DNA of 64,000 bases from Patescibacteria group bacterium (GTDB lineage: Bacteria > Patescibacteriota > Patescibacteriia > UBA9934). The number at the start of each line of letters is the position of its first letter. The first letter of the stretch is position 1. The DNA lies in contig JAGORL010000001.1 in the NCBI GenBank assembly GCA_018062825.1, positions 125,432-189,431 on the forward strand, given 5' to 3'. A program made the position numbers and the translations under genes. Under the pieces are notes generated by a model. That model searched no databases. It was not told the DNA's origin and saw nothing but the letters and a program-made list of their open reading frames with translations. Below, in pieces: positions 8,830 through 43,619 of this stretch.

Positions 8830-8856
8830 CACAACTCGTGCACGCCTCTTTTTTTG
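8821..8856 (+). terminator. hairpin + T7 overlapping hflX stop
   Basis: GAGGCGT-agcacaactcgtgc-ACGCCTC followed by TTTTTTT; sits only ~10 nt before the next gene start. Confidence 0.5.
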
Positions 8857-13600: not shown

Positions 13601-16600
13601 TGACCGATCCGGAAAGCTATACCTGGTCCTGGGCAACGGATGAAAGCTACGCGCGTTTTAATAGTGCAGTAGATACATCATGTGTTGGCGGTACCTCATC
13701 ATGTGCCACAGTTGAAGCGCTTGCAGAAGGCGAGGCGCTGGTAACAGCTACCGAGGTATCTGAGTCCGTTGCTGGTATAAACGGTAGTGGTGAGTTGATC
13801 GTTAATTTTACCGATCCATACGTCACGCAAGCCTGGCCAAATTGTACGGAAGCTTGTACGAATGCAGAAATTGGAGCTCGTTTTAATACACCGATGAATC
13901 AGGTGTCCATTGAGGCTGCAGGCGCGGTGCGCCTTTATGCTTGTGCAAATGAACTGTGTACATCACTCACGCCAATTATTGGTGCAACAGCTAACTGTCT
14001 ATCTGATGACGCAGGAAACTGTATCGGTTTCGCCCTGGCTCCATTATCACTTTCACCAAGTGATTTCTACCGTGTCGTCATCTCTGAGAGCGTTGAGAGC
14101 ATGAGTGGCGTGCCGCTCATTCGTCCAAATTATGGAACAGACTACTCATGGACCTTCCGCGTACGAGAAGACGCAACGGTGTGTGCTATAGACCGCATCA
14201 CGGTTGAGCCTGCTGATGTTGTTGTAAATACCATTGGTGACACCCGTAATTACACTGGTACCGCCTACGGCGCTGCTGACAGTTGCTCAGTCTCTGGTCA
14301 ACGCTTGGCAGGATATGCCTACAATTGGGGCTGGACTGATCCAATTGAAGATGAAAATAACGATAATAACGCCGCAACTCGTGTAGCAAATTGGTATAAC
14401 AACGCTTCGGTTGATAGTGCTCCGGGAGATGTTGTACTTGGCTGTACCTCATCATGTGTGAGCGCTGGTAGTGCTCCGTATAGCGCAATTTGTGGTGATG
14501 GCTACCTTGATGTTGCAAATGGTGAGGAATGTGAGGATGGCAACGTTGCTTCGGGTGATGGTTGCTCATCGAGCTGTCTGCGTGAAGGTCGTGATACGTT
14601 CGGTGTTTGTGGTAACGAAGTTGTTGACCGAACTCCAGCTGGCGCTGGTGAGGATTGTGATGACGGTGCGCGTGTAAGTGGTGATGGTTGTTCGGCGGAT
14701 TGTTTGAGTGAAGGATCATCAGCCATCGGTGCTACGTGCGGCAATAACGACATCGCACGAAATGTAACAACCCTAGCAGGAGAGGAATGTGATGACGGTA
14801 ACGGTACAAACAACGATGGCTGTTCAGCGCAGTGTCTTAATGAGGGTTCGCCGACCTTAGCTTCGGTTGGTGGTGCAGTTTGTGGTGATGGCTCTGTTGA
14901 TAGCCCTGCGGAGAGCTGTGATGATGGAAATACCGTGAACGGCGATGGTTGCTCAGATTCCTGTCTTTTTGAAGGATCATCGTTAGCGTATAGCGTGGGT
15001 TCGGTATGTGGTGATGGTGTGATTGGTATTGGAGAAGAGTGCGAGGACGGCAATAGTAAGTCCGGTGACGGTTGTTCAAAGAAATGTACGCTCGAGGGAT
15101 CATCCTCTTCCTATGCTGCGCCTTCATTCTGCGGCGATGGCATTATCGGCGTTGGTGAAGTGAACGCTTGCGAGGTCGGCATGAATGGTGATGGTCGCAC
15201 GGATCCAGAGCAGATCGCTATCATTCCAGATGAAGCAGTATTTGAGGTAGATCCAGCAACAGATAAGGCGATTGCAACAATTGAAGTCTCTGAGGATTCA
15301 TCTGGATTGTCTGCAACAACTTCGTTAACGCTCACTTGTTCAGCTACATCAGACAACGACTGTCCAGATCCGTCTGTTTATGGCGTTGGCACGGGTAATT
15401 GCTGTATGGCGCGCCCAGAGGTAACGCTTTTCCCATCCGGTTCGAACATGTGCCGCAATACCGCCATCTACCTCGTTTCAAGCGAGGAGCTTGATTTGAA
15501 CACCTTCATGCAGTCAACAACCGGCGGAGCGGTTACCGTTACGACGCCACGCATGTACGCCAAGCTCGATCTTGTCGCAACAGGAGGTGTTTGTCCTACC
15601 TCACACACCACGCTCGCTCAGAACCACACCAAGAATATCTTTGTTCGCGCTTGGTGGTTTGTGCGCGACATCTTCTTTAAGAATGCTCAGGCAGATAGCG
15701 GTGACTGTGTGGTGCCAATTGTTGGTTACGAACAAACGCCAATGGGAGACGGTACCTTTAAGATCGCCATGAAATACGGCGCACTGCTTGAGCCAAATGT
15801 CGGTTACACAATTGTTGTTGAGGGGGATAATGTCGTTAGCGACGCGGTTGTTGATGGCGTACGTTCACGCTACGGAGTCGGTATCAATGGCACGCAGGAG
15901 ATCGTATTTAAAACAGGTCCAGACGCCTGCGCTCTTGATGCTGTTCAGGTTATTGATACCGAGGATGAAACGCCATATACCTTTACCTTCCTTGATGAAG
16001 AACATGAATACTCGGCAGCGGCGTATGCACTTCGTGGAGGAGTGACCGCTGAAATTCAATCGATTCCTGGCGTATACGCTTGGTCATGGAGTTCATGGCT
16101 TTCCGATGCTGAAGACCTCTTTAGCGCCACTCAAGGTTCTGGTGATGGTGACACGGCAACAATCATGACCGAGGGTCAAAATGGTGAGGCAACGATCGTG
16201 GCAATCGCAGAAGTAACTGATGACGAACTTGGTATTGGTGCAGGTGAGGTGAGCGGTACCGCACCAGCATACGCACTTTTGTGTGAAAACCCTTGGCCAA
16301 ATCCATCGGTCGCCTATCCGTTCACAGATACATCCGCTGGTATTCCAGTTGGCGCGGTTAACGCTGGGGGCTGGATGCGCTTTGCGCTTTCATATTGTCG
16401 TGATGCCGGTAACGCAGGCACAGCTGATGACCTTGGCGCACTCACGGCGGTAGTTGCACAAAATCCAGAAAGTGAGGGCGTGCTGAAGGAGTACCTCTTC
16501 CCAGTTGACGATGGCTCGGGCGATGCTATCGGTATTCGTGTAGTTAGTAACGTGAACTACCATGGCGCTCTTGCGTGGTATGAGGCTCAAGGTTTCGCCG

Positions 16601-19600
16601 GTAGCCCAAGCGAGATCGTCGTTGACGGCTTCCGTGCTGTTCGTGACGGTCGAACCGTCTATGTTATCGCACCAAATCTTCCAGGAGCGATCACCCCGTC
16701 AGCGCCAACAACCGGTTATGTGAATACATACGTATTGTCATACAACCAAGGCGCTAGCGATAGCACGGAAATGATCTTTGATCAGATTCTTGAAAACTTC
16801 ATGTTCGGTATCAATATCAGTGACGTTGGACTCTGTGTTGATAGCGGGGGAGACTTCGTGGTTGAGGATGACGGCACGGGTATGTCATGTTCAAGCGATC
16901 TTGAGTGTGGCGGCGTTGGCGGAGTCTGTGCTTCAGATAAGGCAAAGATTCGTCGTGATACGCAGCGTTTGACGGATATGAGTGACATTGCTGCACTTGT
17001 TAATGATTACGGCATTGAAAACGGTGCCTGTTCCGGTAGTCAGGCGCTGTGTTCTGCGGATAGTCAGTGTCCAGCAACAGAGACCTGCGATCCAATCGTT
17101 CCAACGTTGCCGTCGGGAACTTATATTGCCGGTCTTGCTACAAGTAGCTGGCCATCATGGGATTCCTTGCTCGGCGGCGCCCTTGGTGCAAATGCTCTTC
17201 CTGCCGATCCTTTGAACATGTATCAGTCATGTGGCGTTGGCACTGGCATGGCTGCCACATTTGATGCGCAAACCTGTGTTGATGAAGTACAGGGTAAGTA
17301 TGTGTGTCCGGTCGGTTCAAGCGTGTACCACTATCGCGCTGTCGGAAATCGCGACGCTGTACTTTACGCTGATCTTGAAGACGATTCCGTTGAATGGGCA
17401 GCTGATATTGATACAAGCGCTGCGGATACCGTAACAATTCAGATCGGAAACAGCTCATCAACCGCTGAAGGCTTTGGATCAACGCTTGTTTGTAACGATG
17501 CAGCAGTGGGTGACGCTTGGGGCTTCTCAGCTGTTTGTGGCGACGGCATCCTTGGCGCAACTGAGGTGTGTGAAGTTGGTGATGTCGGCGGATCTTCTAC
17601 GGCCTGCGATGCTGATGGTAACGGCACAATTGATGGCGTGCAGTCGCAGATCTGTAACAGCACGTGTAGCGGCTTTGTGAATAATCCAGCCGCCGCCTGT
17701 ATCGCACCAAGTTGCGGCGACGGCATTGTTGATGGCGGTGAAGAGTGTGATGACGGTTCATCAAATGGTCAGTACGGATTCTGTGGTTCTGACTGTTCTT
17801 ATGACACAGCATTCTATTGTGGCGATGGCTTACTTGCTGGTGGTGAGGTCTGTGACTGTGGCGCAGCGCCGCTCATGTCACCACTTGCTGATTCTCGAGC
17901 ATTCTCATCTGGTGCGGGTACGTGCTCGGGCTTAAACGGTGTTTATAACGCAAGCGCTACCGCAAGCTGCGCGTGGAATTGTGCTGGTCCTGCCGGTTTC
18001 TGTGGTGATAACACCGTACAAAGCGGTGAGCAGTGTGATGGTGAGGCGCAAACCTGGGCAGGTGAGTTGTGTACGTCAAATGCTGGCGATCGCAAGGGAT
18101 TGCCATGTACTGAAGACGCCTATTGTAAAGCCGGCGTTGGCGCTGCAGCCTCTGCGGTATGTGGTGGAACCGCTCCCGCACGTCAGGCGTGTCAGGTTGG
18201 TTACACACGTGTTCGTGAATGTGATAACGGTCCGGGTGGTAGCTGTACCTATGATGCCGGTTGGGTAGCTACAGCGTGTACAGAGATCGGATCTTGTGGT
18301 GATGGCGTTGTTGATCCAGATGAAATGTGTGATGACGGTAATACCGATAGTACTGATGGTTGTACCGCAACCTGTCAGGCAAATGTGTGTGGCGACGGCT
18401 TTGTTTACTCAGGAGAGGAAGAGTGTGATGAGGGCGCAGGAAACGGCGCAGCCTGTGATTCTGCCTACGGATCAACATGTACTTCCTGTACTACATCTTG
18501 TAGGTACACCGTTTCTTCTGGTGAGTTCTGTGGTGACGGTGTCAGAAACGGTAATGAATTCTGTGATGCGAGCGCTATTCCATACCGTTGGTTTGATACT
18601 ACGGTCAGCGGTTTGGGCTTTGTTACCGATATGACCCTAGGTGACACCTGTTACACCCTCGGCAGCACGAAAGTTGAAGGTGGAAAGACCTACACCTGCC
18701 GAAGCGTTGGTATCTGTAACGGCGGATCAAGCAATGGTCAGTACTGCACTGCATCTTCTATTCTGGGAACATTCGGTACCGATGTCGCTGACTGTGGCAG
18801 CGAGATCTTCTTGATAGATGGTGAGTCAAAAATAGGTAATGGTGAGTGTGTAAAACCAACCTGTTCCGGCACGTGTGGCAGCGCTTGCCCGTTCTCGTAC
18901 GCTAGCGCTTCATTACTCATGACGCCAAATCAACCAGGTGCGCCAGCTAGCTCCACCGTCTCGCTCTACTCGTTTAGCGACGACTCAACAGCGACCCTGC
19001 CAAACGCCGCTTCAATCACCATTCCTTCCTGTAACGCCGCCACCGGCCTCACGGCTACACTTGATACCTCGGGTATTGATCTGCCTGATACGTACGTTGT
19101 CTTCATTACTGACAGATCGGGATCGATGGCTACATCAGCTTTGTCTGGTGAGGGTATGAATGTTGCGAAGGATGTCGTCCAAGATGGTATCGAAACCTTA
19201 TTTGATGAGCTCGGCGAAGAGATGTTCATCTCACTTGTTGATTACAGCTCAACTGCCTCATCATTCCCAACTTCTGGTTTCTATGGACCTAATGATGAGA
19301 GTCTCTTACTTGCAGAAGTGGAGACATATGTGGCGAGTGGGTCAACGGAAACAGATGATGCGATCAATGCAGCGAAGACACGGCTAGATTCTGTCTTTGA
19401 TAATGGCAATATTCGTCGAGTAGCAATCTTGCTTTCAGACGGTGTGCCAAATTCTACTTCAGCAACAGATACGGCAGCTGAAGCCTTCAAAGATGCCGGC
19501 TACGAGCTCTACACGATCGCTCTCACAAACACCAGCAGTTTGATTGATAACATGAATGGCTGGTCATCAAATAATGAAAATTGGGACTCAGATGATGGTG

Positions 19601-19917
19601 ATGAGCCAAACGTCTACAATCCAGTTACGGGCATTGACTATGCCTATGATGGCGATACTTCGGGAGAGCTAGAAGATATCTACGATCAAATTATTGCTTC
19701 TATCGTTGGTATGGCGATTACGGTGGTAAGTGTGGACGGCGACGATACCGCACTTGATAGCGCTACAGTTACCGCTGGTTCAAATATCGCTTTGCCATGG
19801 CCTTCAAACTTTGAGTGCGATGGCATTGGGGAACAGACTGTGCCAATTCAGATCACCTTCGGTGGCCTTGGTCGGGTAGTGCTCAAGGATGTAAACGTCA
19901 ATTATTGCGCTCCGTAA
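10603..19917 (+). CDS. giant (about 3100 aa) secreted multidomain surface protein: T4SS-pilin-like N-term, IPT/TIG-like repeats, Cys-rich CGDG..EECDDGN..GDGCS repeats, C-terminal vWA/MIDAS domain (probable start GTG 10651)
   Basis: single uninterrupted ORF; N-terminus paralogous to the preceding gene (GTG-AAA start, signal peptide ending VHA/Q, FVWMTSGGSEEKVSRAKKIL); x4 I.SISP..G..G..VTI.G..FG; DRSGSM...ETDD...LLSDG vWA motifs near 19090-19720. Confidence 0.7.
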   Translation: MVRLQQLLVIFSNHRLVKRLLSSLLIALSLGFAGSLAWPSFVPEVHAQATAALDGLEETNESIGLGDQPLEIIIGNIIRVALGFLGIIAVCIILYGGFVWMTSGGSEEKVSRAKKILINGVIGLGLVMTSLAIATFVMNAISGATGSSANGGSTGGGNGGIGLGGGSSSTFEVTAISPQGELAIRNVVAQITFSKSVDEESVAGRIAVTNVVTGEEVPGTLSVRNSRVSFVPSTPCPEPNGDRFCFDANTQYRVSVESGVESTGGITLTCTVASCSGDFVTGELVDVASPDALVTLPDNNASVSVDAFIDTQVQATDDAGLSVVEFQVADVPFDAMPTSGTSALVSSVWDTTSLELGARYRLTGVVFDQAGNSDDDTATVTVRGEWCFNGVLDTDQGETGIDCGGDSGSANYCGSCAGSSCEVNADCGSGASCVTGVCTIVPEITSISPDNAAPGSFVTISGDGFGQAAGSVTFGFGLAGELTAPLAACSENWSPRQIIVEVPQGGVDGAILVAAASGLTDATNDENGISLNDFDVNDVNRPGICAVTPDAGVATSAVVLTGAGFGASQGESEVYFNESIEAGSYVSWAESGANITVPPLAAGEYPVTVVVDGVTSNAVAFDVVTEVDINPVITSVTPGSGGIGQYITLQGADFGTSIGTVFLDSVESGRRAIASIDFPDACADDIWSETEVTVIIPDGYSDGGFDSLVPGAYELTLQSSRGDLSNTVAFNVTSAQPTPGICAIDPSQGAAGDVVTIIGDNFGSTAGTVTFSAGLSAVSGDWEDGEISVTVPAGTQTGSVTVATEAGESNGVTFTVGASATGAAAPVTASYAWMFSTGEIPQTPQVIVTCSDTQVSGVPNATFTQEVCINAVVYVEFTADMNPATLDDALTVARCTAGGDNPCDTTEVISGSYSVNDHAVRFTPVDLLAQSSTYEVRVSTAAQSVDAVALDEDVSWEFTTRSDATLCNIERVVVSPVTKTLTVINDTAPYQALPVTGCVVTDPESYTWSWATDESYARFNSAVDTSCVGGTSSCATVEALAEGEALVTATEVSESVAGINGSGELIVNFTDPYVTQAWPNCTEACTNAEIGARFNTPMNQVSIEAAGAVRLYACANELCTSLTPIIGATANCLSDDAGNCIGFALAPLSLSPSDFYRVVISESVESMSGVPLIRPNYGTDYSWTFRVREDATVCAIDRITVEPADVVVNTIGDTRNYTGTAYGAADSCSVSGQRLAGYAYNWGWTDPIEDENNDNNAATRVANWYNNASVDSAPGDVVLGCTSSCVSAGSAPYSAICGDGYLDVANGEECEDGNVASGDGCSSSCLREGRDTFGVCGNEVVDRTPAGAGEDCDDGARVSGDGCSADCLSEGSSAIGATCGNNDIARNVTTLAGEECDDGNGTNNDGCSAQCLNEGSPTLASVGGAVCGDGSVDSPAESCDDGNTVNGDGCSDSCLFEGSSLAYSVGSVCGDGVIGIGEECEDGNSKSGDGCSKKCTLEGSSSSYAAPSFCGDGIIGVGEVNACEVGMNGDGRTDPEQIAIIPDEAVFEVDPATDKAIATIEVSEDSSGLSATTSLTLTCSATSDNDCPDPSVYGVGTGNCCMARPEVTLFPSGSNMCRNTAIYLVSSEELDLNTFMQSTTGGAVTVTTPRMYAKLDLVATGGVCPTSHTTLAQNHTKNIFVRAWWFVRDIFFKNAQADSGDCVVPIVGYEQTPMGDGTFKIAMKYGALLEPNVGYTIVVEGDNVVSDAVVDGVRSRYGVGINGTQEIVFKTGPDACALDAVQVIDTEDETPYTFTFLDEEHEYSAAAYALRGGVTAEIQSIPGVYAWSWSSWLSDAEDLFSATQGSGDGDTATIMTEGQNGEATIVAIAEVTDDELGIGAGEVSGTAPAYALLCENPWPNPSVAYPFTDTSAGIPVGAVNAGGWMRFALSYCRDAGNAGTADDLGALTAVVAQNPESEGVLKEYLFPVDDGSGDAIGIRVVSNVNYHGALAWYEAQGFAGSPSEIVVDGFRAVRDGRTVYVIAPNLPGAITPSAPTTGYVNTYVLSYNQGASDSTEMIFDQILENFMFGINISDVGLCVDSGGDFVVEDDGTGMSCSSDLECGGVGGVCASDKAKIRRDTQRLTDMSDIAALVNDYGIENGACSGSQALCSADSQCPATETCDPIVPTLPSGTYIAGLATSSWPSWDSLLGGALGANALPADPLNMYQSCGVGTGMAATFDAQTCVDEVQGKYVCPVGSSVYHYRAVGNRDAVLYADLEDDSVEWAADIDTSAADTVTIQIGNSSSTAEGFGSTLVCNDAAVGDAWGFSAVCGDGILGATEVCEVGDVGGSSTACDADGNGTIDGVQSQICNSTCSGFVNNPAAACIAPSCGDGIVDGGEECDDGSSNGQYGFCGSDCSYDTAFYCGDGLLAGGEVCDCGAAPLMSPLADSRAFSSGAGTCSGLNGVYNASATASCAWNCAGPAGFCGDNTVQSGEQCDGEAQTWAGELCTSNAGDRKGLPCTEDAYCKAGVGAAASAVCGGTAPARQACQVGYTRVRECDNGPGGSCTYDAGWVATACTEIGSCGDGVVDPDEMCDDGNTDSTDGCTATCQANVCGDGFVYSGEEECDEGAGNGAACDSAYGSTCTSCTTSCRYTVSSGEFCGDGVRNGNEFCDASAIPYRWFDTTVSGLGFVTDMTLGDTCYTLGSTKVEGGKTYTCRSVGICNGGSSNGQYCTASSILGTFGTDVADCGSEIFLIDGESKIGNGECVKPTCSGTCGSACPFSYASASLLMTPNQPGAPASSTVSLYSFSDDSTATLPNAASITIPSCNAATGLTATLDTSGIDLPDTYVVFITDRSGSMATSALSGEGMNVAKDVVQDGIETLFDELGEEMFISLVDYSSTASSFPTSGFYGPNDESLLLAEVETYVASGSTETDDAINAAKTRLDSVFDNGNIRRVAILLSDGVPNSTSATDTAAEAFKDAGYELYTIALTNTSSLIDNMNGWSSNNENWDSDDGDEPNVYNPVTGIDYAYDGDTSGELEDIYDQIIASIVGMAITVVSVDGDDTALDSATVTAGSNIALPWPSNFECDGIGEQTVPIQITFGGLGRVVLKDVNVNYCAP
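14491..15200 (+). repeat. tandem ~35-aa cysteine-rich repeats inside giant ORF (CGDG.{5,8}EECDDGN.{3,5}GDGCS..C..EG, about 7 copies); a second, looser block at ~17520-18560
   Basis: periodic repeat visible in the translation and as recurring tgtggtgatggc...gatgacggtaa...ggtgatggttgctc DNA. Confidence 0.8.
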
Positions 19918-27913: not shown

Positions 27914-28405
27914 ATGCGCCCGGTATCGCTCATGGTTTTTTCGCTCTTCGCCCTTATCTCCCTTGGTATTGGCTGTGCTGCTGCTCGTGATGCTCAGGAA
28001 GTTGAGGTAAGTAATCGCGATGGTGAGGTTTCGCAAGTAGCAAGCATTGATAACGCACCTGAAGCCCCACTTGTTTCGGATATAACATTTACCGCTGCTA
28101 TTGAAGAGATGGAGGTCACATCACCGGTGGATGTGCAGGTAGAAAGCCGAAAGCTCGCAGTAACTGACTTTGCCTTTACGCCAAATGTAATAACCGTTCC
28201 GGCGGATAAACTAATTGAGATCACGATCGATGTTCTTGAAGGTGAGCATACCTTTGTTGCGGAAGAGCTCGGTATCAATGAAGAGCTAACTTTAGGTGAA
28301 ATACTAAGCTTCACAAGCCCAAGCACACCCGGTCGCTACACATTTTATTGTGGCATCGGTCCAAACCGTGGATTAGGCATGGAGGGCGTTATAGTCGTTG
28401 AGTAA
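27914..28405 (+). CDS. cupredoxin-fold (plastocyanin/azurin-like) lipoprotein, copper ligand set apparently incomplete
   Basis: lipobox LISLGIGC; C-terminal F.F.P..ITVPA...I.I......HTF......G.YTFYCGIG...GM.G.IVVE pattern; no His between the Cys and Met. Confidence 0.45.
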   Translation: MRPVSLMVFSLFALISLGIGCAAARDAQEVEVSNRDGEVSQVASIDNAPEAPLVSDITFTAAIEEMEVTSPVDVQVESRKLAVTDFAFTPNVITVPADKLIEITIDVLEGEHTFVAEELGINEELTLGEILSFTSPSTPGRYTFYCGIGPNRGLGMEGVIVVE

Positions 28406-28452: not shown

Positions 28453-28653
28453 CTAGCGGCGGCCACGAGGAGGGTGGCTCTCGATGATCTCACCGAGTGC
28501 GTCGAAGTAGCAGTCATCATGAACCGGCTTGTCGTCGATCAGGTGACCGCTCTCACCGCTACCGGTAATCGGCAGGTTGCACTGCTCGCACTGCTGAGGC
28601 TCTGCGGGCGCAAGAACTCCGGCGGGCGTTGAAAGGAACGTACGGACATTCAT
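28453..28653 (-). CDS. small (66 aa) Cys/His-containing hypothetical protein in a GC-rich patch
   Basis: ATG at 28653 preceded by GGAGG + 5 nt; CEQC...HDDC; own terminator; local GC clearly above flanks. Confidence 0.35.
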   Translation of the reverse strand: MNVRTFLSTPAGVLAPAEPQQCEQCNLPITGSGESGHLIDDKPVHDDCYFDALGEIIESHPPRGRR

Positions 28654-28712
28654 TGATGCCTCCAGGGTGAAGGTAGGGTAGCAGTAGCAGTAGCGCCTAG
28701 CAAGGTAAAACA

Positions 28713-28736
28713 AAACAACGCCGTGAGGCGTTGTTT
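28713..28736 (-). terminator. terminator hairpin, member 1 of a repeated hairpin family (AAACAACGCC-gtga-GGCGTTGTTT)
   Basis: 10-bp perfect stem directly 3' of the lectin-like gene stop, followed on minus strand by TTTTGTTTTACC. Confidence 0.7.
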
Positions 28737-28742
28737 GAGTTA

Positions 28743-30734
28743 CTAGCGAGCGAACTTCTTAAACAGCGTAACATCGATATCCATAACAAGGTCAGCCCAA
28801 TCGGCGCCAAAACGTTCCTGTGCCGCTTCCTCGCTGGTAATGTACTCAAGCATCGGTCCGGCGGATCCGGTAATGACATGGAATACCTCAGGTTTGCTTT
28901 GTATCTTTACGAGCGATCCAGGCTTTGGAAGCGCAGGCGAGCCCATGGGGATAGTGGCTAGGGTAGCGTCGGTTACCGTATGAACTGCATCAAAATCAGC
29001 AAACCACGTGAAGTAAATGGCGGATGTCATGAACGGTCGGCGAGTGCCGTTCTCAAGAAGGTAGACGGCGTCAAAGTGCTCGCCCTTGATAAGAAGCATG
29101 CCTGTCACGTTCGTAATCGGTTCAATTTCACCATTCCATGGCGATGGCCCGGTGAGCTCCGTTGTTTGCTCGGCTTCCTCATCAACCACCTCTTCATCGA
29201 TAATAGTCTCTTCTGGGCAGTTAGGTGCAGTGATTGAGGCAGTTGCTGAGAGCGTTACTCGAGTGCCCGAGCTGTTGCGAAGAAGAGCGTAGGCAGTTAC
29301 CGACCCGTTCTGCTCTTGAAACGTCCACGGCACAGTTACTGAACCGTCCGTGAGAGAACTCCAGGTACCGCTTGAAAATAATGCATCATGAGCAAGCGTG
29401 TATTCGGTCGCTCCAGGGGCGCTAATGGTCACCATGCCACTTGGGGCAGCGCCTGTACACGAGGTAGCTAAATCAGTAATTCCCATCGTCGCGCCTGTGA
29501 TTGGCGTGATGATCGTTGAGGAAGACGATCGTTCAGTTGTAAAAGTCCAAGCTGTATTACTCGTAATACCAGCAAAGCTACCTCCGGTAGTTGCATCAAA
29601 GGCAGTAGCATCAATGCGTACATATACTTCAGTGCCGCCAGGAAGTGAGACTGTTGGATTGATGGTGATAGTATCGGTGCCGTCTCCTGTTACCTGGCCG
29701 CTCGTCACGTTGATGGTGGTAAGTACGGCGTCATTACTTACGCGATAGATCGTGATATTTCCCGTTTCAACATTAACTGCTTGATCAAAAGTGATAACAA
29801 GATTTTCATTGCGATCAATATCTACGGCGCTGTCGGTTGGAGAAATAGTATCGATAACAGGCGCTTCGTATGTGGTGATGGTGAATTCGTTACCTGCCGT
29901 TTCCGGAAGATCGCCGTCAGCTCCGAACTCAACAACATAGCCTTGAAGCATGGTGCCGGAGCAGGGAAGATCATTCCAAAGGCCAGTTCCGCCAGAGAGG
30001 AATTGCCCACAATCTTCACCAGCGCCGTGTTCATTTGGTTCTCCAGAGCTCCAGTTTTCATACTCGCCAGGAACGACGGTGCCGTTACCAACCCCAACCC
30101 AGAAAAGATCGCCACTTTCAGGGCCGGTAACCCAGCGCCAGTCGCCTTCAACACTGGCATCACTTGCACCCATCCAGCCCGCGCCAGCTAGGCGATCAGC
30201 GACGAAATCATTTTCTTCTTCAGAAGTGATGGTCGTAAGGTATCCCGTTGAACCGTAACGCGAAAGAAGTTCAGCTGCTGCTTCTGCCGCAACCCAATCG
30301 ATATCACCAGGAACCGAAATGTATTCGTAAAGGTGACCATTGTCTGAAAAGAAGACTTCACCAGACTCAACAAGTGAGACTTCAAGCGCATCAGCTCCGG
30401 TTGAATTGCGGGTATAGGTCAGCGTAGCAAGCGCGTCGTTTACATCCTCATAATCTCCTGAGAAGTAAATTTCAGCTCCGGTGGATGGTCCGTCAAATGT
30501 TAGGCCGGTAGTGGTACTCATAGCGAGAGTTCCGTGCGTAACAAGAAGCTTAACAGGAATTACGCCTGTACTACCGGTAATTTCAAGATCAGGGAAAGTA
30601 AAAGCCACGCCTTCGGTAGCCTCTAAGTTATCGGTACCGGTAATTTCCCACGGACTATCAGCGTGAACGGCAGGGGCATGAAAGAGTGATCCGAAAAGAA
30701 CTAAAGCAATCGCTAAGGCGAATATTTTTTTCAT
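28743..30734 (-). CDS. secreted protein with Ig-like domains and a C-type lectin-like domain
   Basis: signal peptide MKKIFALAIALVLFGSLFHAPAVHA; CTLD pattern WMGASD..VEGDWRWVTG......W...NG......ENWSSGEPN.HGAGEDCGQFL.....LWNDLPC......YVVEF. Confidence 0.6.
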   Translation of the reverse strand: MKKIFALAIALVLFGSLFHAPAVHADSPWEITGTDNLEATEGVAFTFPDLEITGSTGVIPVKLLVTHGTLAMSTTTGLTFDGPSTGAEIYFSGDYEDVNDALATLTYTRNSTGADALEVSLVESGEVFFSDNGHLYEYISVPGDIDWVAAEAAAELLSRYGSTGYLTTITSEEENDFVADRLAGAGWMGASDASVEGDWRWVTGPESGDLFWVGVGNGTVVPGEYENWSSGEPNEHGAGEDCGQFLSGGTGLWNDLPCSGTMLQGYVVEFGADGDLPETAGNEFTITTYEAPVIDTISPTDSAVDIDRNENLVITFDQAVNVETGNITIYRVSNDAVLTTINVTSGQVTGDGTDTITINPTVSLPGGTEVYVRIDATAFDATTGGSFAGITSNTAWTFTTERSSSSTIITPITGATMGITDLATSCTGAAPSGMVTISAPGATEYTLAHDALFSSGTWSSLTDGSVTVPWTFQEQNGSVTAYALLRNSSGTRVTLSATASITAPNCPEETIIDEEVVDEEAEQTTELTGPSPWNGEIEPITNVTGMLLIKGEHFDAVYLLENGTRRPFMTSAIYFTWFADFDAVHTVTDATLATIPMGSPALPKPGSLVKIQSKPEVFHVITGSAGPMLEYITSEEAAQERFGADWADLVMDIDVTLFKKFAR

Positions 30735-30800
30735 ACAATTGCAAAAAGTATAGCATGCAGCGTGAGCGATAAAGTAGTGAAATTTGAACAATATCTAGAT

Positions 30801-30833
30801 AACAAAACAACCCCGCGAAGGGTTGCTTTGTTG
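30801..30833. repeat. hairpin AACAAAACAACCCC-gcgaa-GGGGTTGCTTTGTT, variant of the repeated hairpin family
   Basis: 13/14 bp stem; shares the AACAAAACAAC arm with hairpins at 28713, 31711 and 32069. Confidence 0.5.
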
Positions 30834-30927
30834 CTTACTCCAGGGCAACTTTGCTCATAAAATAGTCCTCCGTGGTTCGAATACAATTTTCGATCCCAGT
30901 TTATGCTCGCTAGGTTTTAAAAAAAAT

Positions 30928-31617: not shown

Positions 31618-31710
31618 CTTGGAAGTGATTATTAATTATAATGAGATTTTTCAAAAAAGTCAATATATCAGGGCGGCTAATTTTCATATATTGCTTGACA
31701 TATTGCAAAA

Positions 31711-31738
31711 CAAAACAACGCCCTGAAGCGTTGTTTTG
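31711..31738 (-). terminator. terminator hairpin, family member (CAAAACAACGC-cctgaa-GCGTTGTTTTG)
   Basis: 11-bp stem directly 3' of GIY-YIG gene stop on minus strand; 17-mer CAAAACAAAACAACGCC identical to the 28707 copy. Confidence 0.7.
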
Positions 31739-32052: not shown

Positions 32053-32068
32053 ATAGTTCTATGATAGC

Positions 32069-32094
32069 AAAATAACGCCTAAGGCGTTATTTTG
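32069..32094 (-). terminator. terminator hairpin, family member (CAAAATAACGCC-ta-GGCGTTATTTTG) downstream of tRNA-Asp
   Basis: 12-bp stem, U-rich 3' flank on minus strand. Confidence 0.6.
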
Positions 32095-32163
32095 CTTCAT
32101 CTCGGTGCGACTTTGTGACCCGTATGCTACTTGCATGGCGGGCCACGTCGGTCGCGACCGACG

Positions 32164-32240
32164 TGGCGGGACGGACGGGACTCGAACCCGCAACTTCTGC
32201 CGTGACAGGGCAGTGCTCTAACCAATTGAACTACCGTCCC
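32164..32240 (-). tRNA. tRNA-Asp (anticodon GUC), CCA encoded
   Basis: reverse complement GGGACGGTAGTTCAATTGGTTAGAGCACTGCCCTGTCACGGCAGAAGTTGCGGGTTCGAGTCCCGTCCGTCCCGCCA folds as cloverleaf: 7-bp acceptor, D-arm GTTC/GAGC, anticodon stem CTGCC/GGCAG loop CTGTCAC, T-loop TTCGAGT. Confidence 0.85.
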
Positions 32241-33724: not shown

Positions 33725-33825
33725 GCCTGAAAGCCTATCCACGAAACCTCCGGTGAGAAAGGAAAAGGGACCAGAGGTCATTGCTGACTTGGTCCCCACG
33801 TTTGCCGTCAGGTCGAGCCTGGCAG

Positions 33826-35151
33826 CTACTTGTTGTCGGTGTCCGCTTCGGTGCGGACCGGTTCGAAGTTGCCGCCTTCGTCGACGGTGATCGTCGGCTC
33901 GACGTCTTCGATGAACTCGGCGAACTGCGGCGGTTTCGGGCTGCACGTGGGCTGCCCGTCACCGTTCGTCTGACCCAGGCCCCAGCACCGAGCGATCGCG
34001 CCCGACGTGGAGGGGAGGGTCGTGTAGGAGCCACCACTGACGACGATCACCTCCTTGAGGTTGATCGTCACGCCGTCGCCATCGCCAGCGACGAGCACGT
34101 GCCCACCGTTGTCACCCGCCGGACCCTTGCGCAGGTCCGGGGCGCAGACCTCCCACCTCTCGTAGTGAGAGAGGTTGGGCCAGTCGAGCTGCACGCTTTC
34201 GAGGGCGCGCTTCTCGTACTCGATGATCGTGCACTTCTGAGCCACGCCCTCGACCTCGACGGTCGCGAGCACGGTGTCGCCGGAGACGGCCACGTAGTAC
34301 TCGTGGCTCACGCTGCTCTCTCCGGGATCCGGCACGGTGGCCGGCACCACCGCGACCGGCTCGGAGCCGATCGTGGCGTTGTCACCACCGGTCGTGAGTG
34401 CGTACAGCCCGATCCCGCCGCCCGTGAAGGCGACGAACCCGAGCACACACACGAGGACCACGGCCATGACGGCCACAGCCCCGATCAGCGGTCGGTGGTT
34501 GCTCGACGCCCGGGCGACGGGGATGTCATCCTCGTCATCCGGCTCGTACTGCACCTCGGCCACCATGGGCGGCTTGGTGTCCCCGAACCACGCTCGATCG
34601 TCGACGTCGGTCGGCCCCGGCGTATTCACGGGGGGCGGCGGCGCTGCCGTCGGCTGAGGCGGCTTCAGGGAGAGCGGCGGGGGCGGGGCATCGGAAGGGG
34701 CGTCGTCCGCCTCCTCCTCCGCTCGCCTGGCCATCTCTTCCTTGGTGAACACGCCGGTTCCATCGCTCGGGTCCGGCGGGGGGAAGACCGGCTGCCTGCT
34801 GATCGTTCCCCCACGCGCACTCGGTCGCGGCGCAGGGCGCGGGTTCGGTCCCGCCCTGAGGGACTCGGGACCGACGCTCGTCGCCGGGAAGGCGACCCGC
34901 GTGCTGGATCCGCGCTCGGTGCTCGGCCCGGGGAGATCCCCGAGCGACTCGTCGAGCATGTCACCACCGACCGGTTCGAGATCTTGTCCCGACAGGTCGA
35001 TGATGGGCTCGTGAGCCCTGCTGCTCGGAACCGTCGCGACCGGAGCGGGGCGAACGGCGGGCGTGGGACGCCCCTCGTCGCTGCTCCTGTCGGCCTCGTC
35101 ACTCATGTCGTCGTCCATCGGACGACCGTCCTGTTCGTCTCCGCCCATCAT
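33826..35151 (-). CDS. single-pass membrane protein, long Pro/Asp-rich cytoplasmic N-region + 4-Cys extracytoplasmic domain (cassette copy 1)
   Basis: RBS GGAGG-5nt-ATGATG at 35151; TM helix LIGAVAVMAVVLVCVLGFVAF; C-domain ...CTIIEYEK...LDWPN.S..ERWEVC..DL......G..L.......I.L.EVI...G.YT.L.ST.GA.ARCWG.GQ.NGDGQP.C.PKP shared with the copy at 35768. Confidence 0.5.
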   Translation of the reverse strand: MMGGDEQDGRPMDDDMSDEADRSSDEGRPTPAVRPAPVATVPSSRAHEPIIDLSGQDLEPVGGDMLDESLGDLPGPSTERGSSTRVAFPATSVGPESLRAGPNPRPAPRPSARGGTISRQPVFPPPDPSDGTGVFTKEEMARRAEEEADDAPSDAPPPPLSLKPPQPTAAPPPPVNTPGPTDVDDRAWFGDTKPPMVAEVQYEPDDEDDIPVARASSNHRPLIGAVAVMAVVLVCVLGFVAFTGGGIGLYALTTGGDNATIGSEPVAVVPATVPDPGESSVSHEYYVAVSGDTVLATVEVEGVAQKCTIIEYEKRALESVQLDWPNLSHYERWEVCAPDLRKGPAGDNGGHVLVAGDGDGVTINLKEVIVVSGGSYTTLPSTSGAIARCWGLGQTNGDGQPTCSPKPPQFAEFIEDVEPTITVDEGGNFEPVRTEADTDNK

Positions 35152-35314
35152 GAGGGCCTCCAGTGCTGGTGGAAGGTGCATGTCACGAACAAAGATGCCC
35201 AAGGAGGGCAAGATCGTCGTCGACCGCGAACTATAGCCAAAAATAAGAAAAACGTCAAGCAAAGGCAGAAAAGAAACACCCGCCACATTCCGGTAAGGGA
35301 TGGGCGGGTACGTG

Positions 35315-35683
35315 CTAGGTAAGTCCGAAGGCCGCGGCAAGTGCCTGGGGGCCATACGGTTTATAGAGGACCGTGACCCCGCGCTCCTTGAGCGTGGTCA
35401 CGTCGGCATGATTGGGATTGCCCGTATTGGCTACGAAGAGCGCTTGGGGCGAGGCTTGTCCCACAAGGTCATGCACCTCGACCGAATTCCCGTGAGGAAA
35501 CTCGATGTCAGACAAGACGTAGTCGAACTTCTTGGTCATGATCGCCTTCCTGGCCTCGTGGCCGTCGGCAGCGATCGTGATGACGGTCGTGTGACCGGCA
35601 TTTGCGAACAGTCGAGCGCAGGTGCGCTGAGCCGCCCGCTGCAAGAGATCGTTATCCTCCACGATCAGGACAAAGTATTCCAC
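35315..35683 (-). CDS. stand-alone response-regulator receiver (CheY-like) protein, copy 2 (GTG start)
   Basis: VLIVEDND...FDYVLSDIEFP...YKP; RBS GGAGA upstream. Confidence 0.65.
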   Translation of the reverse strand: MEYFVLIVEDNDLLQRAAQRTCARLFANAGHTTVITIAADGHEARKAIMTKKFDYVLSDIEFPHGNSVEVHDLVGQASPQALFVANTGNPNHADVTTLKERGVTVLYKPYGPQALAAAFGLT

Positions 35684-35767
35684 ACCACTCTCCTATAAAA
35701 GATGAGAGGGGACCGACGCACAGCATGGCTGATTGTCGATCCCCTCGAGGGTTGCTGCGAAGTACTG

Positions 35768-36412
35768 CTACTTCGCGGCGGCGTTCTGGGCGACCACGTT
35801 GGCGGGCGCGGCGGGCTTCGGCGTGCAGGCGGGCTGCCCGTCACCGTTGACCTGGCCAGCACCCCAGCAGCGCGCGAGCGCTCCGGGGGTGGAGACGAGG
35901 GCGGTATAGTCGCCGGTGGTCGTGATGACCTCCGACAACTTGATCCGCTTCCCGCCGACCGTGAGCACCATCGCGCCGTGGGCATCGGCGGCCTCCTTCT
36001 TCAGGTCGGTGCCGCAGATCTCCCACCGCTCCTTGGAGCTCTTGTTCGGCCAGGTCAGGTCGACGCCCTCGATCAGGTCCTTCTCGAAGGTCACGATGGC
36101 ACACAGGTGATCCTGGCGCTTGATCGTGACCGGGGCGAGGCGGACGTCGTCGTTGACGGCGACCGTGATCGGACCGGGGGTGATGGTCACCGCGAGCGGC
36201 GTCTCGCCGGGGTCGCTGGTCTCCTCGGCCACCACCACGGTCGGCTGGTTGCCGACGGCGGGGGTGCGCGACATGTAGCCGACGCCGATCATGAGGATGA
36301 CCATGAGCACGCCGAGAAAACCGGCGATCATGAGGGGGTTGTAGCCCCCTTGGTCGTTCTTGACCTCGCTCGTGTGGGTGGTGGTCTCGGTCGTGATGGA
36401 CGGCTCGGACAT
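35768..36412 (-). CDS. single-pass membrane protein with the same 4-Cys extracytoplasmic domain (cassette copy 2)
   Basis: RBS GGAGG-4nt-ATG at 36412; MSEPSITTE...; TM LMIAGFLGVLMVILMIGVGY; C-domain ...CAIVTFEK...LTWPNKSSKERWEICGTDL...ARCWGAGQVNGDGQPACTPKP. Confidence 0.5.
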   Translation of the reverse strand: MSEPSITTETTTHTSEVKNDQGGYNPLMIAGFLGVLMVILMIGVGYMSRTPAVGNQPTVVVAEETSDPGETPLAVTITPGPITVAVNDDVRLAPVTIKRQDHLCAIVTFEKDLIEGVDLTWPNKSSKERWEICGTDLKKEAADAHGAMVLTVGGKRIKLSEVITTTGDYTALVSTPGALARCWGAGQVNGDGQPACTPKPAAPANVVAQNAAAK

Positions 36413-37849: not shown

Positions 37850-38261
37850 TGGTGGACTTGAGGAGAGTTGAACTCCTGTCCGGTCAGCCGCCCGATAGTG
37901 ATTATTCCAAGCTCATGCACGCTTGAGAGTACGACCAGAGCGCTAAAGGCGTGCCGTAAATGCGCTCGTGAAGATCCTTTCGCCAGAGGTCACGTTGCCG
38001 GAAAAGATAACAGCAACGTCAATCCTAGATAGATATAACACCTGTGATTCTTACTCTAGGCAGCAAGAGACAGATGGTTGCAGGCTTTATTAAGCGGCAA
38101 CAAACGCGAATGAAGGTGTAGCAAATGCCGAAGCAAGTGCGGCCTTAGCGCGTGAGAATACGTTGGCAGGTATTCGAATTGCATCATTGGGTTGCGGGGT
38201 AATGGTGCACCCCCGGCTTGATCATCTATCGTTTGTACTGCCGTCGATTCCCGGCAAGCCC
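37850..38261 (-). ncRNA. ssrA: tmRNA (ssrA), about 412 nt
   Basis: 5' GGGCUUGCCGGGAAUCGACGG (tmRNA 5' consensus GG.UUCGACGG); 3' AGGAG-UUCAACU-CUCCU-CAAGUCC-ACCA; acceptor GGGCUUG/CAAGUCC with G3:U70; internal ORF ending GCG UUU GUU GCC GCU UAA UAA; 12 nt downstream of smpB stop. Confidence 0.7.
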
Positions 38262-42086: not shown

Positions 42087-42241
42087 GCTTTGTTAAGGTC
42101 GGCCTGACCTCGATTTCGGGGACTTCGTGGAACGGTCGTGACGTCTCCTCCTCGTCGCGATTCGCGCCCGCGAAGTCTCCAAAGCCGAGGTCATTTTTAT
42201 TGAAAAATTGCTAGTTTTAGCCAAGGAATGACAGGGAAATC

Positions 42242-42270
42242 TTGACATTTCCCGTATTTTTTGCTACTAT
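42242..42270 (+). promoter_or_regulatory. near-consensus sigma70-type promoter (TTGACA-17-TACTAT) driving the GC-rich gene pair
   Basis: cTTGACAtttcccgtattttttgcTACTATagactg. Confidence 0.55.
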
Positions 42271-42458
42271 AGACTGTTCGAGAAAGCAGCCAAATGAACG
42301 GTATTCCCTCGGCTCAATTGCGTTCCACTCCTCCAGGGACGCAGTTGAGCCACGGGAGTGCCGTTCGGGCGCTACCACAGAACGGGCCTCGCCCGAACAC
42401 CACGCGTCCTTTCCACTCACTGTCAGTTTGCCGCTTTCACTAGCGGCTGGAGGATCCG

Positions 42459-43391
42459 ATGATCAAGCTCATCTCCCTGTTCGCCCTCGCCGCTTTCGCC
42501 CCGGTCGCCATGGCCGACGCCCCGCCCGAGTGCGTGACGCCGTGCCCCCCGGGCCCGACGGTCACGAGCGGCAGCAACTCCGCGGAGGCCGTCCAGGCCG
42601 ACGTGCAGCAGCTCCGCAGCGACCTCCGGCGCCTCAAGGCGCGGGTGGTCACGCTCGAAGGCCAGCAGGCCACCGACGAGGCCACCCGCCTCGCCGAGAT
42701 CGAGCGCCGCCTGTCGGTGCTCGAAGGCAAGATGGACGCCCTCGACCCCGCCGCCGTCAAGGTGGAGCTCACCTCGCTCCGCAGCGACCTCACCGCCCTC
42801 ACCGGGCGCGTGGCGGCGCTCGAGGAGGACATGCGTCTCATCAAGGATCGCGTCACCGCCCTCGAGGTGGCACGGGTCGCGGAGGTCATCATGCCCCGCC
42901 TCGTCACCTTCGCGACCAGCGTCGGTGCCAGCGGTTTCGCGGCCAACGGCCACGACGTCGTCTCCGACGACATGGTGTTCCACGCCTCTCCGTCCGCGGG
43001 TGGCGCGTTCGACCTCTCGGTCGGCGTGCTCGTGCGGCCCGAGGAGATCCCGATGTACTTCGGTGCCAGCGTCGCCCCGCGCCTCTCGTTCGACGAAGGG
43101 TACGGCGGCTCGCTCATCGGACGCGTCGGCGGAACGCTGGGGCCGGCCAAGGGGATGGAGCTCGGCTTGCTCGGTGGCGTGGACTTCTTCCACGACCCGA
43201 ACCTGCAGGCTCCGGACTGGATGCCCAACCCCATCCGGCAGAGCTGGCGTGGGCTGGTCGGCGCCGAGTACAACTACATCTTCTTCCGGAGTGATTCCGG
43301 ACAGGAGATCGGACTCGGTGTCGAAGCCAGCGTCCTGCCCGGTCGCGAGATCGAGGGACGGTTCCTGGGTGCGGTCAAGGCTCGGTTCTAA
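42459..43391 (+). CDS. secreted protein: signal peptide + coiled coil + beta-rich C-terminal domain ending in Phe (GC-rich)
   Basis: RBS GGAGGA; MIKLISLFALAAFAPVAMA signal; heptad-rich 60-150; alternating hydrophobic strands; C-terminal ...GAVKARF. Confidence 0.5.
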   Translation: MIKLISLFALAAFAPVAMADAPPECVTPCPPGPTVTSGSNSAEAVQADVQQLRSDLRRLKARVVTLEGQQATDEATRLAEIERRLSVLEGKMDALDPAAVKVELTSLRSDLTALTGRVAALEEDMRLIKDRVTALEVARVAEVIMPRLVTFATSVGASGFAANGHDVVSDDMVFHASPSAGGAFDLSVGVLVRPEEIPMYFGASVAPRLSFDEGYGGSLIGRVGGTLGPAKGMELGLLGGVDFFHDPNLQAPDWMPNPIRQSWRGLVGAEYNYIFFRSDSGQEIGLGVEASVLPGREIEGRFLGAVKARF

Positions 43392-43619
43392 CCTCTCTGG
43401 TCAGTGACTTCGGTCGCTGATCGGACAGGTCGTGGCGCTGTGTGACATACGAAAGTATGTTGCATGGCGCCTATTCGTTTACCAAAAAATTGACGAAAAT
43501 AGAAAAATAGGCTACGGTACGGCGTCACTTTTCAAAGCTACCAAGAGTTGCACTTGCGGCATTTCTTGGGAGACTTGAAGAGGAATTGGCCTCTCAAGCT
43601 CACACATTCTGGAGGGAAC

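Follow-up and report, generated by a model that had tools for sequence, protein, structure and literature searches.

The stretch of DNA analysed here, a 64-kb window (64,000 nucleotides) of contig JAGORL010000001.1 from a Patescibacteria group bacterium, carries on its minus strand an open reading frame (ORF) that codes for 663 residues from an ATG (MKKIF...) and that we describe as a lectin gene. The mechanically defined ORF extends 19 codons beyond this ATG, to a TTG at 30791. We take the ATG to be the real start because the product is identical to NCBI P0001, a protein of 663 aa titled 'Ig-like domain-containing protein [Patescibacteria group bacterium]', because the equivalent methionine is the first residue in most full-length orthologues, and because the same 663-aa gene was called in an independent assembly. 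No NCBIfam model matched the 663-aa protein and no paralogue of the gene was found in the window. Its neighbors are a cupredoxin gene, small ORFs and a gene for a GIY-YIG protein.

The protein begins with a classic Sec signal. Its N-terminus reads MKKIFALAIALVLFGSLFHAPAVHA, then the cleavage mark, then DS, and the arrangement MKK-IFALAIALVLFGSLF-HAPAVHA/DS has the n-, h- and c-region layout and an AXA-type cleavage site. Residues 4-18, with a mean Kyte-Doolittle hydropathy of 2.73, form the sole strongly hydrophobic peak of the protein, residues 2-17 are helical in the AlphaFold2 model, and a signal-equivalent N-terminus was found in the orthologues that start at the aligned methionine. A lipobox cysteine, a second transmembrane segment and an LPXTG motif were all absent from the 663-aa protein. 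A preliminary description of this locus had proposed a secreted 663-aa product with a signal peptide and Ig-like beta domains. The ORF and the Sec signal bear out the first part, and Pfam Big_5 together with further beta-sandwiches in the model bears out the second.

The AlphaFold2 model, built template-free and at full length on 73 family sequences, has a mean predicted local distance difference test score (pLDDT) of 91.1 and divides the exported part of the protein into the domains in Table 1. The beta-rich N-terminal domain (N-domain; residues 28-121) had no Pfam match at E<=10, and its profile gave chance-level matches only against PDB sequences (e.g. HPr, LHCI). It is followed by a C-type lectin-like domain (CTLD), a Big_5 domain, a second Ig-like sandwich, an acidic linker and a C-terminal alpha/beta domain. 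The second Ig-like domain (~410-508) had no Pfam match at E<=10 and contains two invariant cysteines, C426 and C506; residues 509-523 of the linker have pLDDT below 50 and are not conserved in sequence. We compared the domains by mean identity to the query among 16 full-length orthologues. The CTLD is the most conserved, at 70% mean identity with 43% invariant columns. The N-domain is second (64%), and in Myxococcota proteins it is likewise joined to the CTLD, immediately preceding it; the C-terminal domain (54%) and Big_5 (53%) come next, and the middle Ig-like domain (29%) and the linker (21%) are poorly conserved. Judged from these alignments, this is the pattern expected if a fixed ligand-binding head were carried on a variable spacer.

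Table 1. Features of the lectin gene and its product, with positions in the window; MBP-A, rat mannose-binding protein A.
Feature	Positions	Strand	Residues, sequence or basis
Hairpin 3' of stop	28707..28740	-	AAACAACGCC-TCAC-GGCGTTGTTT then TGTTTT; called by terminator scan
Complete coding sequence	28743..30734	-	663 aa plus stop; stop codon 28743-28745
C-terminal alpha/beta domain	28746..29156	-	residues 527-663; no Pfam model; proposed envelope/cell-wall anchor
Acidic linker (EETIIDEEVVDEEAEQ...)	29157..29210	-	residues 509-526; low-confidence, disordered
Second Ig-like beta-sandwich	29211..29507	-	residues ~410-508; model
Big_5 bacterial Ig-like domain, stalk	29535..29867	-	residues 290-400; Pfam E 8.7e-11, beta-sandwich in model
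C-type lectin-like domain (CTLD)	29919..30371	-	residues 122-272; Lectin_C, PDB phmmer, Foldseek, conservation
Principal predicted Ca2+/sugar-binding loop	29970..30041	-	residues 232-255; HMMER alignment to MBP-A plus conservation
Remaining predicted Ca2+ site-1 ligands D192, E196	30147-30161	-	upstream in protein of the loop
N-terminal beta-rich domain	30372..30653	-	residues 28-121; model plus conservation
Sec signal peptide	30660..30734	-	residues 1-25; MKK / hydrophobic core / AVHA then DS
Tentative extended -10 element TGCTATACT	30747..30755	-	ends 12 nt before ATG; sequence read only
Related hairpin	30799..30835	.	65 nt upstream of start codon; CAACCC-CGCGAA-GGGTTG, A-tract on one side, T-tract on the other
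Residue D192			MBP-A D161 (HMMER alignment)
Residue E196			MBP-A E165 (HMMER alignment)
Residue E232			MBP-A E185 (HMMER alignment)
Residue N234			MBP-A N187 (HMMER alignment)
Residue E235			MBP-A D188 (HMMER alignment)
Residue E240			MBP-A E193 (HMMER alignment)
Residue D241			MBP-A D194 (HMMER alignment)
Residue N254			MBP-A N205 (HMMER alignment)
Residue D255			MBP-A D206 (HMMER alignment)

Sequence comparison and the predicted structure both indicate that the conserved head is a genuine C-type lectin domain. Three independent lines identify it as a true CTLD: the Lectin_C score, the matches to PDB sequences and the superposition of the model. Pfam Lectin_C (PF00059) matched residues 163-259 with 37.5 bits against a gathering cutoff of 22.6 (E 4.4e-9), and a precomputed PF00059 match is present on nearly all of the relatives listed. 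The landmarks GWMGASD, WRWV, YENW, GEPNEHGAGEDCG, LWNDLPC and YVVEF are present. A phmmer search of PDB sequences returned 89 CTLD chains at E<=0.1; the matches listed are animal CTLDs, with langerin the best (1.4e-10), then CD23, aggrecan and mannose-binding proteins, and with MBP-A at E ~1e-10, like langerin. In the predicted structure, residues 126-270 adopt a CTLD fold (beta-alpha-beta-alpha-beta...), the same fold as in the metazoan PF00059 domains of langerin, CD23 and the collectin MBP-A. Foldseek matched it with target-normalised TM scores (TMt) of 0.72-0.80 to CEL-I, the aggrecan CTLD and MBP-A/C (structures 4wqq, 1tdq_B, 2msb_B and 1bv4).

The preliminary description had announced a canonical-looking CTLD that agrees closely with the metazoan pattern at its landmarks, and the Lectin_C score and the 89 PDB chains exceed what chance would give. 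The Lectin_C match is significant and lies above the gathering cutoff, the predicted structure has the CTLD fold with a complete EPN/WND set, and the domains matched are metazoan-type carbohydrate-recognition domains (CRDs) rather than the intimin/invasin fold only. Some details in that description have to be corrected. The CTLD had been placed near the C-terminus; it actually occupies residues ~122-272 of 663, in the N-terminal 40% of the protein. Two landmark spacings also differ from those given, with 6 residues, not 12, from WMGASD to WRWV, and 13 residues, not 6, from FW to ENW.

The residues that would coordinate Ca2+ and sugar can be placed by alignment to rat MBP-A. HMMER aligned YENWSSGEPNEHGAGEDCG..LWNDLPC, within YENWSSGEPNEHGAGEDCGQFLSGGTGLWNDLPC, to the MBP-A sugar loop that ends in WND, and a collinear but individually weak segment, GWMGASDASVEGDW, within GWMGASDASVEGDWRWVTGP, was aligned to the same protein; MBP-A numbering uses a chain offset of 72 taken from the second HMMER alignment. 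In the classic MBP-A structure, the aligned residues (Table 1) coordinate Ca2+ at sites 1 and 2, and those of the EPN/WND set also bind the equatorial 3- and 4-hydroxyls of mannose-type sugars. In our protein the loop runs E232-P233-N234-E235-H236 ... E240-D241-C242 ... W253-N254-D255. By this alignment the site-2 set (E-P-N, the downstream E, and W-N-D) is complete, as is the site-1 set (the counterparts of MBP-A D161, E165, D188 and D194), and the histidine following EPN-x is common to both proteins. The two loops, EPN-x-H...ED-C...WND, are nearly identical, and the proteins share the Ca2+ ligands of both sites as well as the C2-C3 disulfide, formed here by C242 and C258 and the sole disulfide kept. 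The ligand positions are conserved in 71-72 of the 72 aligned relatives, apart from position 235, where 57 sequences have D, 12 have N and 2 have E. Given EPN and a complete MBP-type double Ca2+ site, we predict Ca2+-coordinated binding of sugars with equatorial 3- and 4-hydroxyls, which would be of the mannose, GlcNAc, glucose or fucose type.

Compared with metazoan CRDs, the domain is bacterial, is without the C1-C4 disulfide, contains an insertion of ~16 residues, and has an overall identity of ~24-32%. It also sits in a different context from that of metazoan collectins, with no collagen or coiled-coil neck, a beta domain before it, and bacterial Ig-like domains and an anchor module after it. 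The conservation of the site bears on what the domain binds. Most members of the CTLD superfamily bind no sugar, and the EPN/WND set could in principle be retained merely for Ca2+-dependent folding of a domain whose ligand is a protein, a mineral or ice. Foldseek also matched the Ca2+-independent type II antifreeze CTLD (TMt 0.77), and the coupled N-domain could supply the real binding surface. However, CTLDs of that kind typically lose the EPN/QPD-E-WND set, and here it is complete and nearly invariant, including the histidine of MBP-A; we consider a non-carbohydrate ligand very unlikely.

The complete Ca2+ site also separates the protein from intimin and invasin, which are likewise bacterial adhesins that combine Ig-like (Big) repeats with a CTLD-superfamily head. 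Intimin and invasin have C-terminal heads without a Ca2+/sugar loop, bind protein ligands (Tir, integrins) and are anchored by an N-terminal beta-barrel. By contrast, the head described here is N-terminal, matches Lectin_C and metazoan CRDs, and has the full Ca2+ site. The N-terminal position of the head, the full Ca2+ site, the lack of any barrel or intimin Pfam match, and an N-terminus that offers a signal helix only led us to reject an intimin/invasin-type adhesin.

Another known group for comparison comprises the variable proteins of diversity-generating retroelements (DGRs). The DGR CLec proteins (Mtd, TvpA and relatives), which are abundant in Patescibacteria, belong to the same broad fold superfamily and are predicted to be surface ligand binders. 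The literature that we found pairing CPR/Patescibacteria with 'C-type lectin', part of it represented by titles and abstracts, consisted only of work on DGR CLec proteins and would favor this assignment. However, the gene has no template/variable repeat pair in the 64-kb window, its CTLD matches Lectin_C itself, and no part of the protein is more conserved than this domain, whose ligand site is invariant rather than hypervariable. Direct-repeat families were identified in the window and none involves 29900-30400; no scan was aimed at a reverse transcriptase. The lack of a template/variable repeat in the window and the invariance of the site jointly argue that the gene is no DGR target, and we give that possibility virtually no weight.

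The lectin family is large. At E<=1e-3, with 8000 candidates scored, we found at least 563 clusters at 90% identity, and a scan of GTDB species showed relatives encoded in 108 species genomes. Most of these are titled as Patescibacteria, among them Paceibacterota, Saccharibacteria/Saccharimonadia, Roizman-, Magasanik-, Zambryskii- and Kaiserbacteria, and Minisyncoccia; relatives outside Patescibacteria are found in Myxococcota and in one Solidesulfovibrio. For a single family these numbers do not square with the view, voiced in the preliminary description, that CTLDs are rare in bacteria. The family is already visible in databases, Pfam-tagged as Lectin_C, yet unstudied, and is less exotic than first presented. 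Several third-party-annotation metagenome-assembled genomes with a Patescibacteria-type gene are titled 'uncultured Gammaproteobacteria bacterium', 'Burkholderiales' or 'Kapaibacterium' (L003, L005, L009, L013, L017, L018, L021 and others). Such titles look unreliable and could mislead taxonomic summaries of the lectin family.

The relatives outside Patescibacteria likewise carry a canonical EPN/WND CTLD in a distal or N-terminal position within a large exported protein; their anchors and stalks differ from those of our protein and none appears to have been experimentally characterised. A 2871-aa protein of Archangium, in Myxococcota (L073 3336-11951, +), has two N-domain plus CTLD modules and is rich in Cys-repeat modules; it also has the GH(F/L)YEY junction in common with our protein. 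By eye, its C-terminal stretch looks OmpA-like. In P0077, an autotransporter of 1147 aa, the CTLD is the tip of the passenger. The cultured Solidesulfovibrio alcoholivorans DSM 5433 encodes a 971-aa protein (L080 4353-7268, +) whose CTLD has four cysteines (one in helix 1, one in YICEW), as opposed to the two-Cys form of the Patescibacteria family, and which could be an experimentally tractable relative.

These relatives also inform the origin of the domain. BLASTP comparison of the CTLD gave identities of 64-73% among the Patescibacteria members of the family; beyond them the values drop to 52-55% (P0018, taxonomically unassigned), 44-45% (Archangium), 40% (autotransporter P0077), 35% (Solidesulfovibrio) and 32% (human langerin). 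Because identity falls in this graded series, the nearest outgroups found are bacterial. A recent transfer from a eukaryote, or contamination, would explain why the sugar loop so closely resembles that of vertebrate MBP-A, but it is opposed by this series, by the native GC and GC3 (third-codon-position GC) of the gene, by its bacterial signal peptide, Big_5 domain and terminator, and by a syntenic orthologue in another genome, and we regard it as extremely unlikely. Nothing in the sequence comparisons points to a recent eukaryotic origin.

The opposite end of the protein is where the family varies in kind. More than 100 sister proteins share the first ~60% (N-domain, CTLD and Big_5) and differ in the terminal module, which at the extreme C-terminus is PG_binding_1, LysM (often after fn3-like domains) or an autotransporter beta-barrel; examples are PG_binding_1 at 798-854 of 866 aa and LysM at 810-855 of 857 aa. 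The C-terminal domain of our protein (527-663) had no Pfam match even at E 10. Its sequence matched 3488 clusters of a 50%-identity representative library, 1096 of them at E<=1e-10, and nearly always forms the last ~140 residues of the proteins that carry it, whose lengths vary between 147 and 3855 aa; tandem arrays of 6-14 copies occur in a few proteins. Upstream of it lie unrelated extracellular modules, with Big_5 in 38 of the 69 proteins scanned and Kre9_KNH, FG-GAP, DUF285, subtilase, PA14 and Laminin_G_3 among the others. We regard this domain of ~137 aa as a candidate new domain family. We also considered the domain as a tandem repeat, which its sequence does not support; it aligned to itself with a score lower than the mean for shuffled sequences, and what looks like a two-unit symmetry is not significant by sequence.

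Mainly from its position and its modularity, and by analogy with the sister proteins, we propose that the C-terminal domain is an envelope anchor. Its best matches among solved structures, all with weak scores, are to the EccB1 repeat, PlyCB, LysIME-EF1 and the Lys170 CBD, the last two from Enterococcus phage lysins. These wall-binding domains compare with the C-terminal domain only, and not with the rest of the protein. Against viral structures, Foldseek matched uncharacterised actinophage proteins only. The EccB1 repeats have been related to the cell-wall-binding protein PlyCB by the EccB1 structure paper (PMC4769845).

The position of the proposed anchor bears on which way the protein faces. 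With reversed polarity, the CTLD would bind the cell's own wall polysaccharide or S-layer glycan and the protein would have an envelope-organising or anchoring, structural role instead of one in host adhesion. The peptidoglycan of the cell itself contains sugars of the GlcNAc type, to which EPN sites bind, the strong conservation of the CTLD across distant Patescibacteria would fit a self ligand better than diverse host glycans, and the wall-binding role of the C-terminal domain is weakly supported. However, the sister proteins have bona fide anchors (PG_binding_1, LysM, the autotransporter barrel) at the C-terminus with the CTLD far N-terminal, the displayed part of an autotransporter is its N-terminal passenger, and an additional anchor at the opposite end would be superfluous. 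A self-directed lectin is therefore unlikely in our estimation.

From the domain order and the predicted site, the protein is probably a Sec-exported, non-covalently envelope-attached adhesin with a Ca2+-dependent lectin activity of the mannose/GlcNAc type. In this model, removal of the signal peptide would leave a rod with a distal head, a stalk and a proximal anchor. The head would consist of the beta N-domain fused to a canonical C-type CRD, and the stalk of the two Ig-like domains followed by the flexible acidic linker. At the proximal end, the C-terminal alpha/beta domain would hold the protein on the cell's own wall. The small cell would in this way become attached to glycans of another surface, for which a host microbe's envelope is the most plausible candidate. 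Ca2+ and sugar binding and the class of sugar are inferences, as are the way the protein is oriented on the cell, attachment of the C-terminal domain to the wall, and what the head targets. Host-glycan recognition would be a plausible fit to this architecture.

Several observations weigh against this model. The positions of the C1-C4 disulfide, in helix 1 and in the last strand (YVVEF), are not cysteines; exactly two cysteines are present in the CTLD of 71 of the 73 family sequences, which likewise have no C1-C4 pair. We treated the two-Cys form as a variant disulfide pattern and not as grounds for exclusion from the CTLD superfamily. Between beta2 and the YENW strand lie ~16 extra residues (206-224), a family-specific insertion in which F211, W212 and G214 are conserved; it adjoins the site and could change specificity. 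Across the Ca2+ loops, whose geometry is predicted, pLDDT is 76-81, as expected without ions. Finally, no neighbouring gene ties the lectin to a symbiosis apparatus.

The neighborhood is equally relevant to a nutritional role, in which a surface lectin would concentrate environmental or host polysaccharide for an auxotrophic, genome-reduced cell. The evidence for a lectin serves this explanation equally well, Patescibacteria are scavengers, and many environmental lineages for which no host is known have members of the family. However, no glycoside hydrolase, transporter or binding-protein gene is adjacent, and a long stalk with a single head is more adhesin-like than uptake-like. We judge glycan capture to be quite improbable.

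How ultra-small episymbionts recognise and hold their hosts is an open question, and the proposed adhesin makes the lectin family a concrete, expressible candidate with a predictable signature, namely mannose/GlcNAc-type binding that is Ca2+-dependent and EDTA-reversible. In cultivated Saccharibacteria, soluble mannose or glucose approximately halves host binding, and the lectins responsible are yet to be identified (PMC11623550). Transposon sequencing (Tn-seq) of an epibiotic Patescibacteria strain identified several essential surface proteins with glycan-binding domains, none of them described as a CTLD (PMC10633639). A more sweeping proposal would make the N-domain plus two-Cys EPN CTLD a general Patescibacteria receptor for host glycans, and the missing Ca2+-dependent, mannose- and glucose-inhibitable lectin by which episymbionts attach to cell-wall polysaccharides of their hosts, and would make the C-terminal domain, with its 3488 clusters, a new phylum-wide wall anchor; we consider this doubtful. 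If the protein is merely one of many generic surface lectins, the gain is in annotation, from 'Ig-like domain-containing protein' to 'C-type lectin domain surface protein'. The family shows a fully equipped 'animal' C-type CRD circulating widely among bacteria on adhesin-like scaffolds, and the analysis brings to light a very common C-terminal domain that is without a family model.

The lectin gene resembles its surroundings in composition. Its GC content is 0.503 compared with 0.512 for the window, and its GC3 of 0.449 is like that of neighbouring housekeeping genes. Another genome has an orthologue (P0003, 58% identical) at a distance of ~3 kb from an FtsZ-NrdR-pyruvate kinase block that is also present here; the small ORFs that separate the two are different ones. 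In the window, the lectin stop codon is ~0.8 kb past the pyruvate kinase gene, and the interval contains a cupredoxin gene and a small ORF. Because of the native GC and GC3 and the synteny with P0003, we take the gene to have been kept vertically in a locally fluid neighborhood. The two downstream neighbors are a gene for a cupredoxin-like protein with a signal peptide (27914-28405, +, 163 aa) and a small Cys-containing ORF with no family match (28453-28713, -, 66-86 aa). Neither is among the Pfam-annotated neighbors of the orthologue in L002.

Hairpins flank the gene on both sides (Table 1). Copies lie at 28707-28736 and 30799-30828; a third copy occupies 31707-31736, and the palindrome at 32066-32096 is similar. 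They share the sequence AAAACAAAACAACGCC-loop-GGCGTTGTTT, and two of the copies are 93% identical over 30 nt. This shared-sequence hairpin is confined to a 3.4-kb stretch of the window, where it brackets the lectin gene and a 204-aa gene. The hairpin 3' of the stop codon probably serves the lectin gene as its intrinsic terminator. The one upstream of the start codon is terminator-like and would insulate the lectin gene from the 204-aa gene that precedes it. The sequence common to the copies exceeds what a generic terminator needs. The preliminary description had placed the gene in an accessory region bounded by these hairpins. Copies do flank the gene, but terminator anatomy, native GC and synteny rule out a mobile or accessory island bounded by repeats, and the hairpins are best read as bidirectional intrinsic terminators of a common sequence style and not as element boundaries.

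Upstream of the lectin gene, the sole promoter-like feature, the tentative extended -10 element TGCTATACT, was not called by the promoter scan, which found no good -35, and no Shine-Dalgarno sequence was evident in 30735-30800. A -10 element so near the ATG suggests, as far as the sequence can be read, an mRNA leader that is very short or absent.

Elsewhere in the window, two segments (~33800-36000 and ~42200-44700) have a GC content of 0.63-0.66 against a background of 0.50, the first starting ~3 kb from the lectin gene. They lie near tRNA-Asp (32164-32240) and tmRNA (37850-38261) and contain overlapping long ORFs on both strands with no Pfam match. These segments, unlike the lectin gene, are the compositionally odd 'accessory' part of the window; they may have a foreign origin, have been integrated, or result from a chimeric assembly. 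The window also encodes, in adjacent genes, two large exported proteins of 600 aa (8838-10640, +) and 3104 aa (10603-19917, +), both of which start with T4SS_pilin (PF18895). The larger contains TIG, Big_5, DUF4215 Cys-rich repeats and a C-terminal VWA domain; the DUF4215 repeats show up in the DNA as repeat families D1/D2 at 14.5-18.4 kb. Both look like pilin-headed giant surface proteins.

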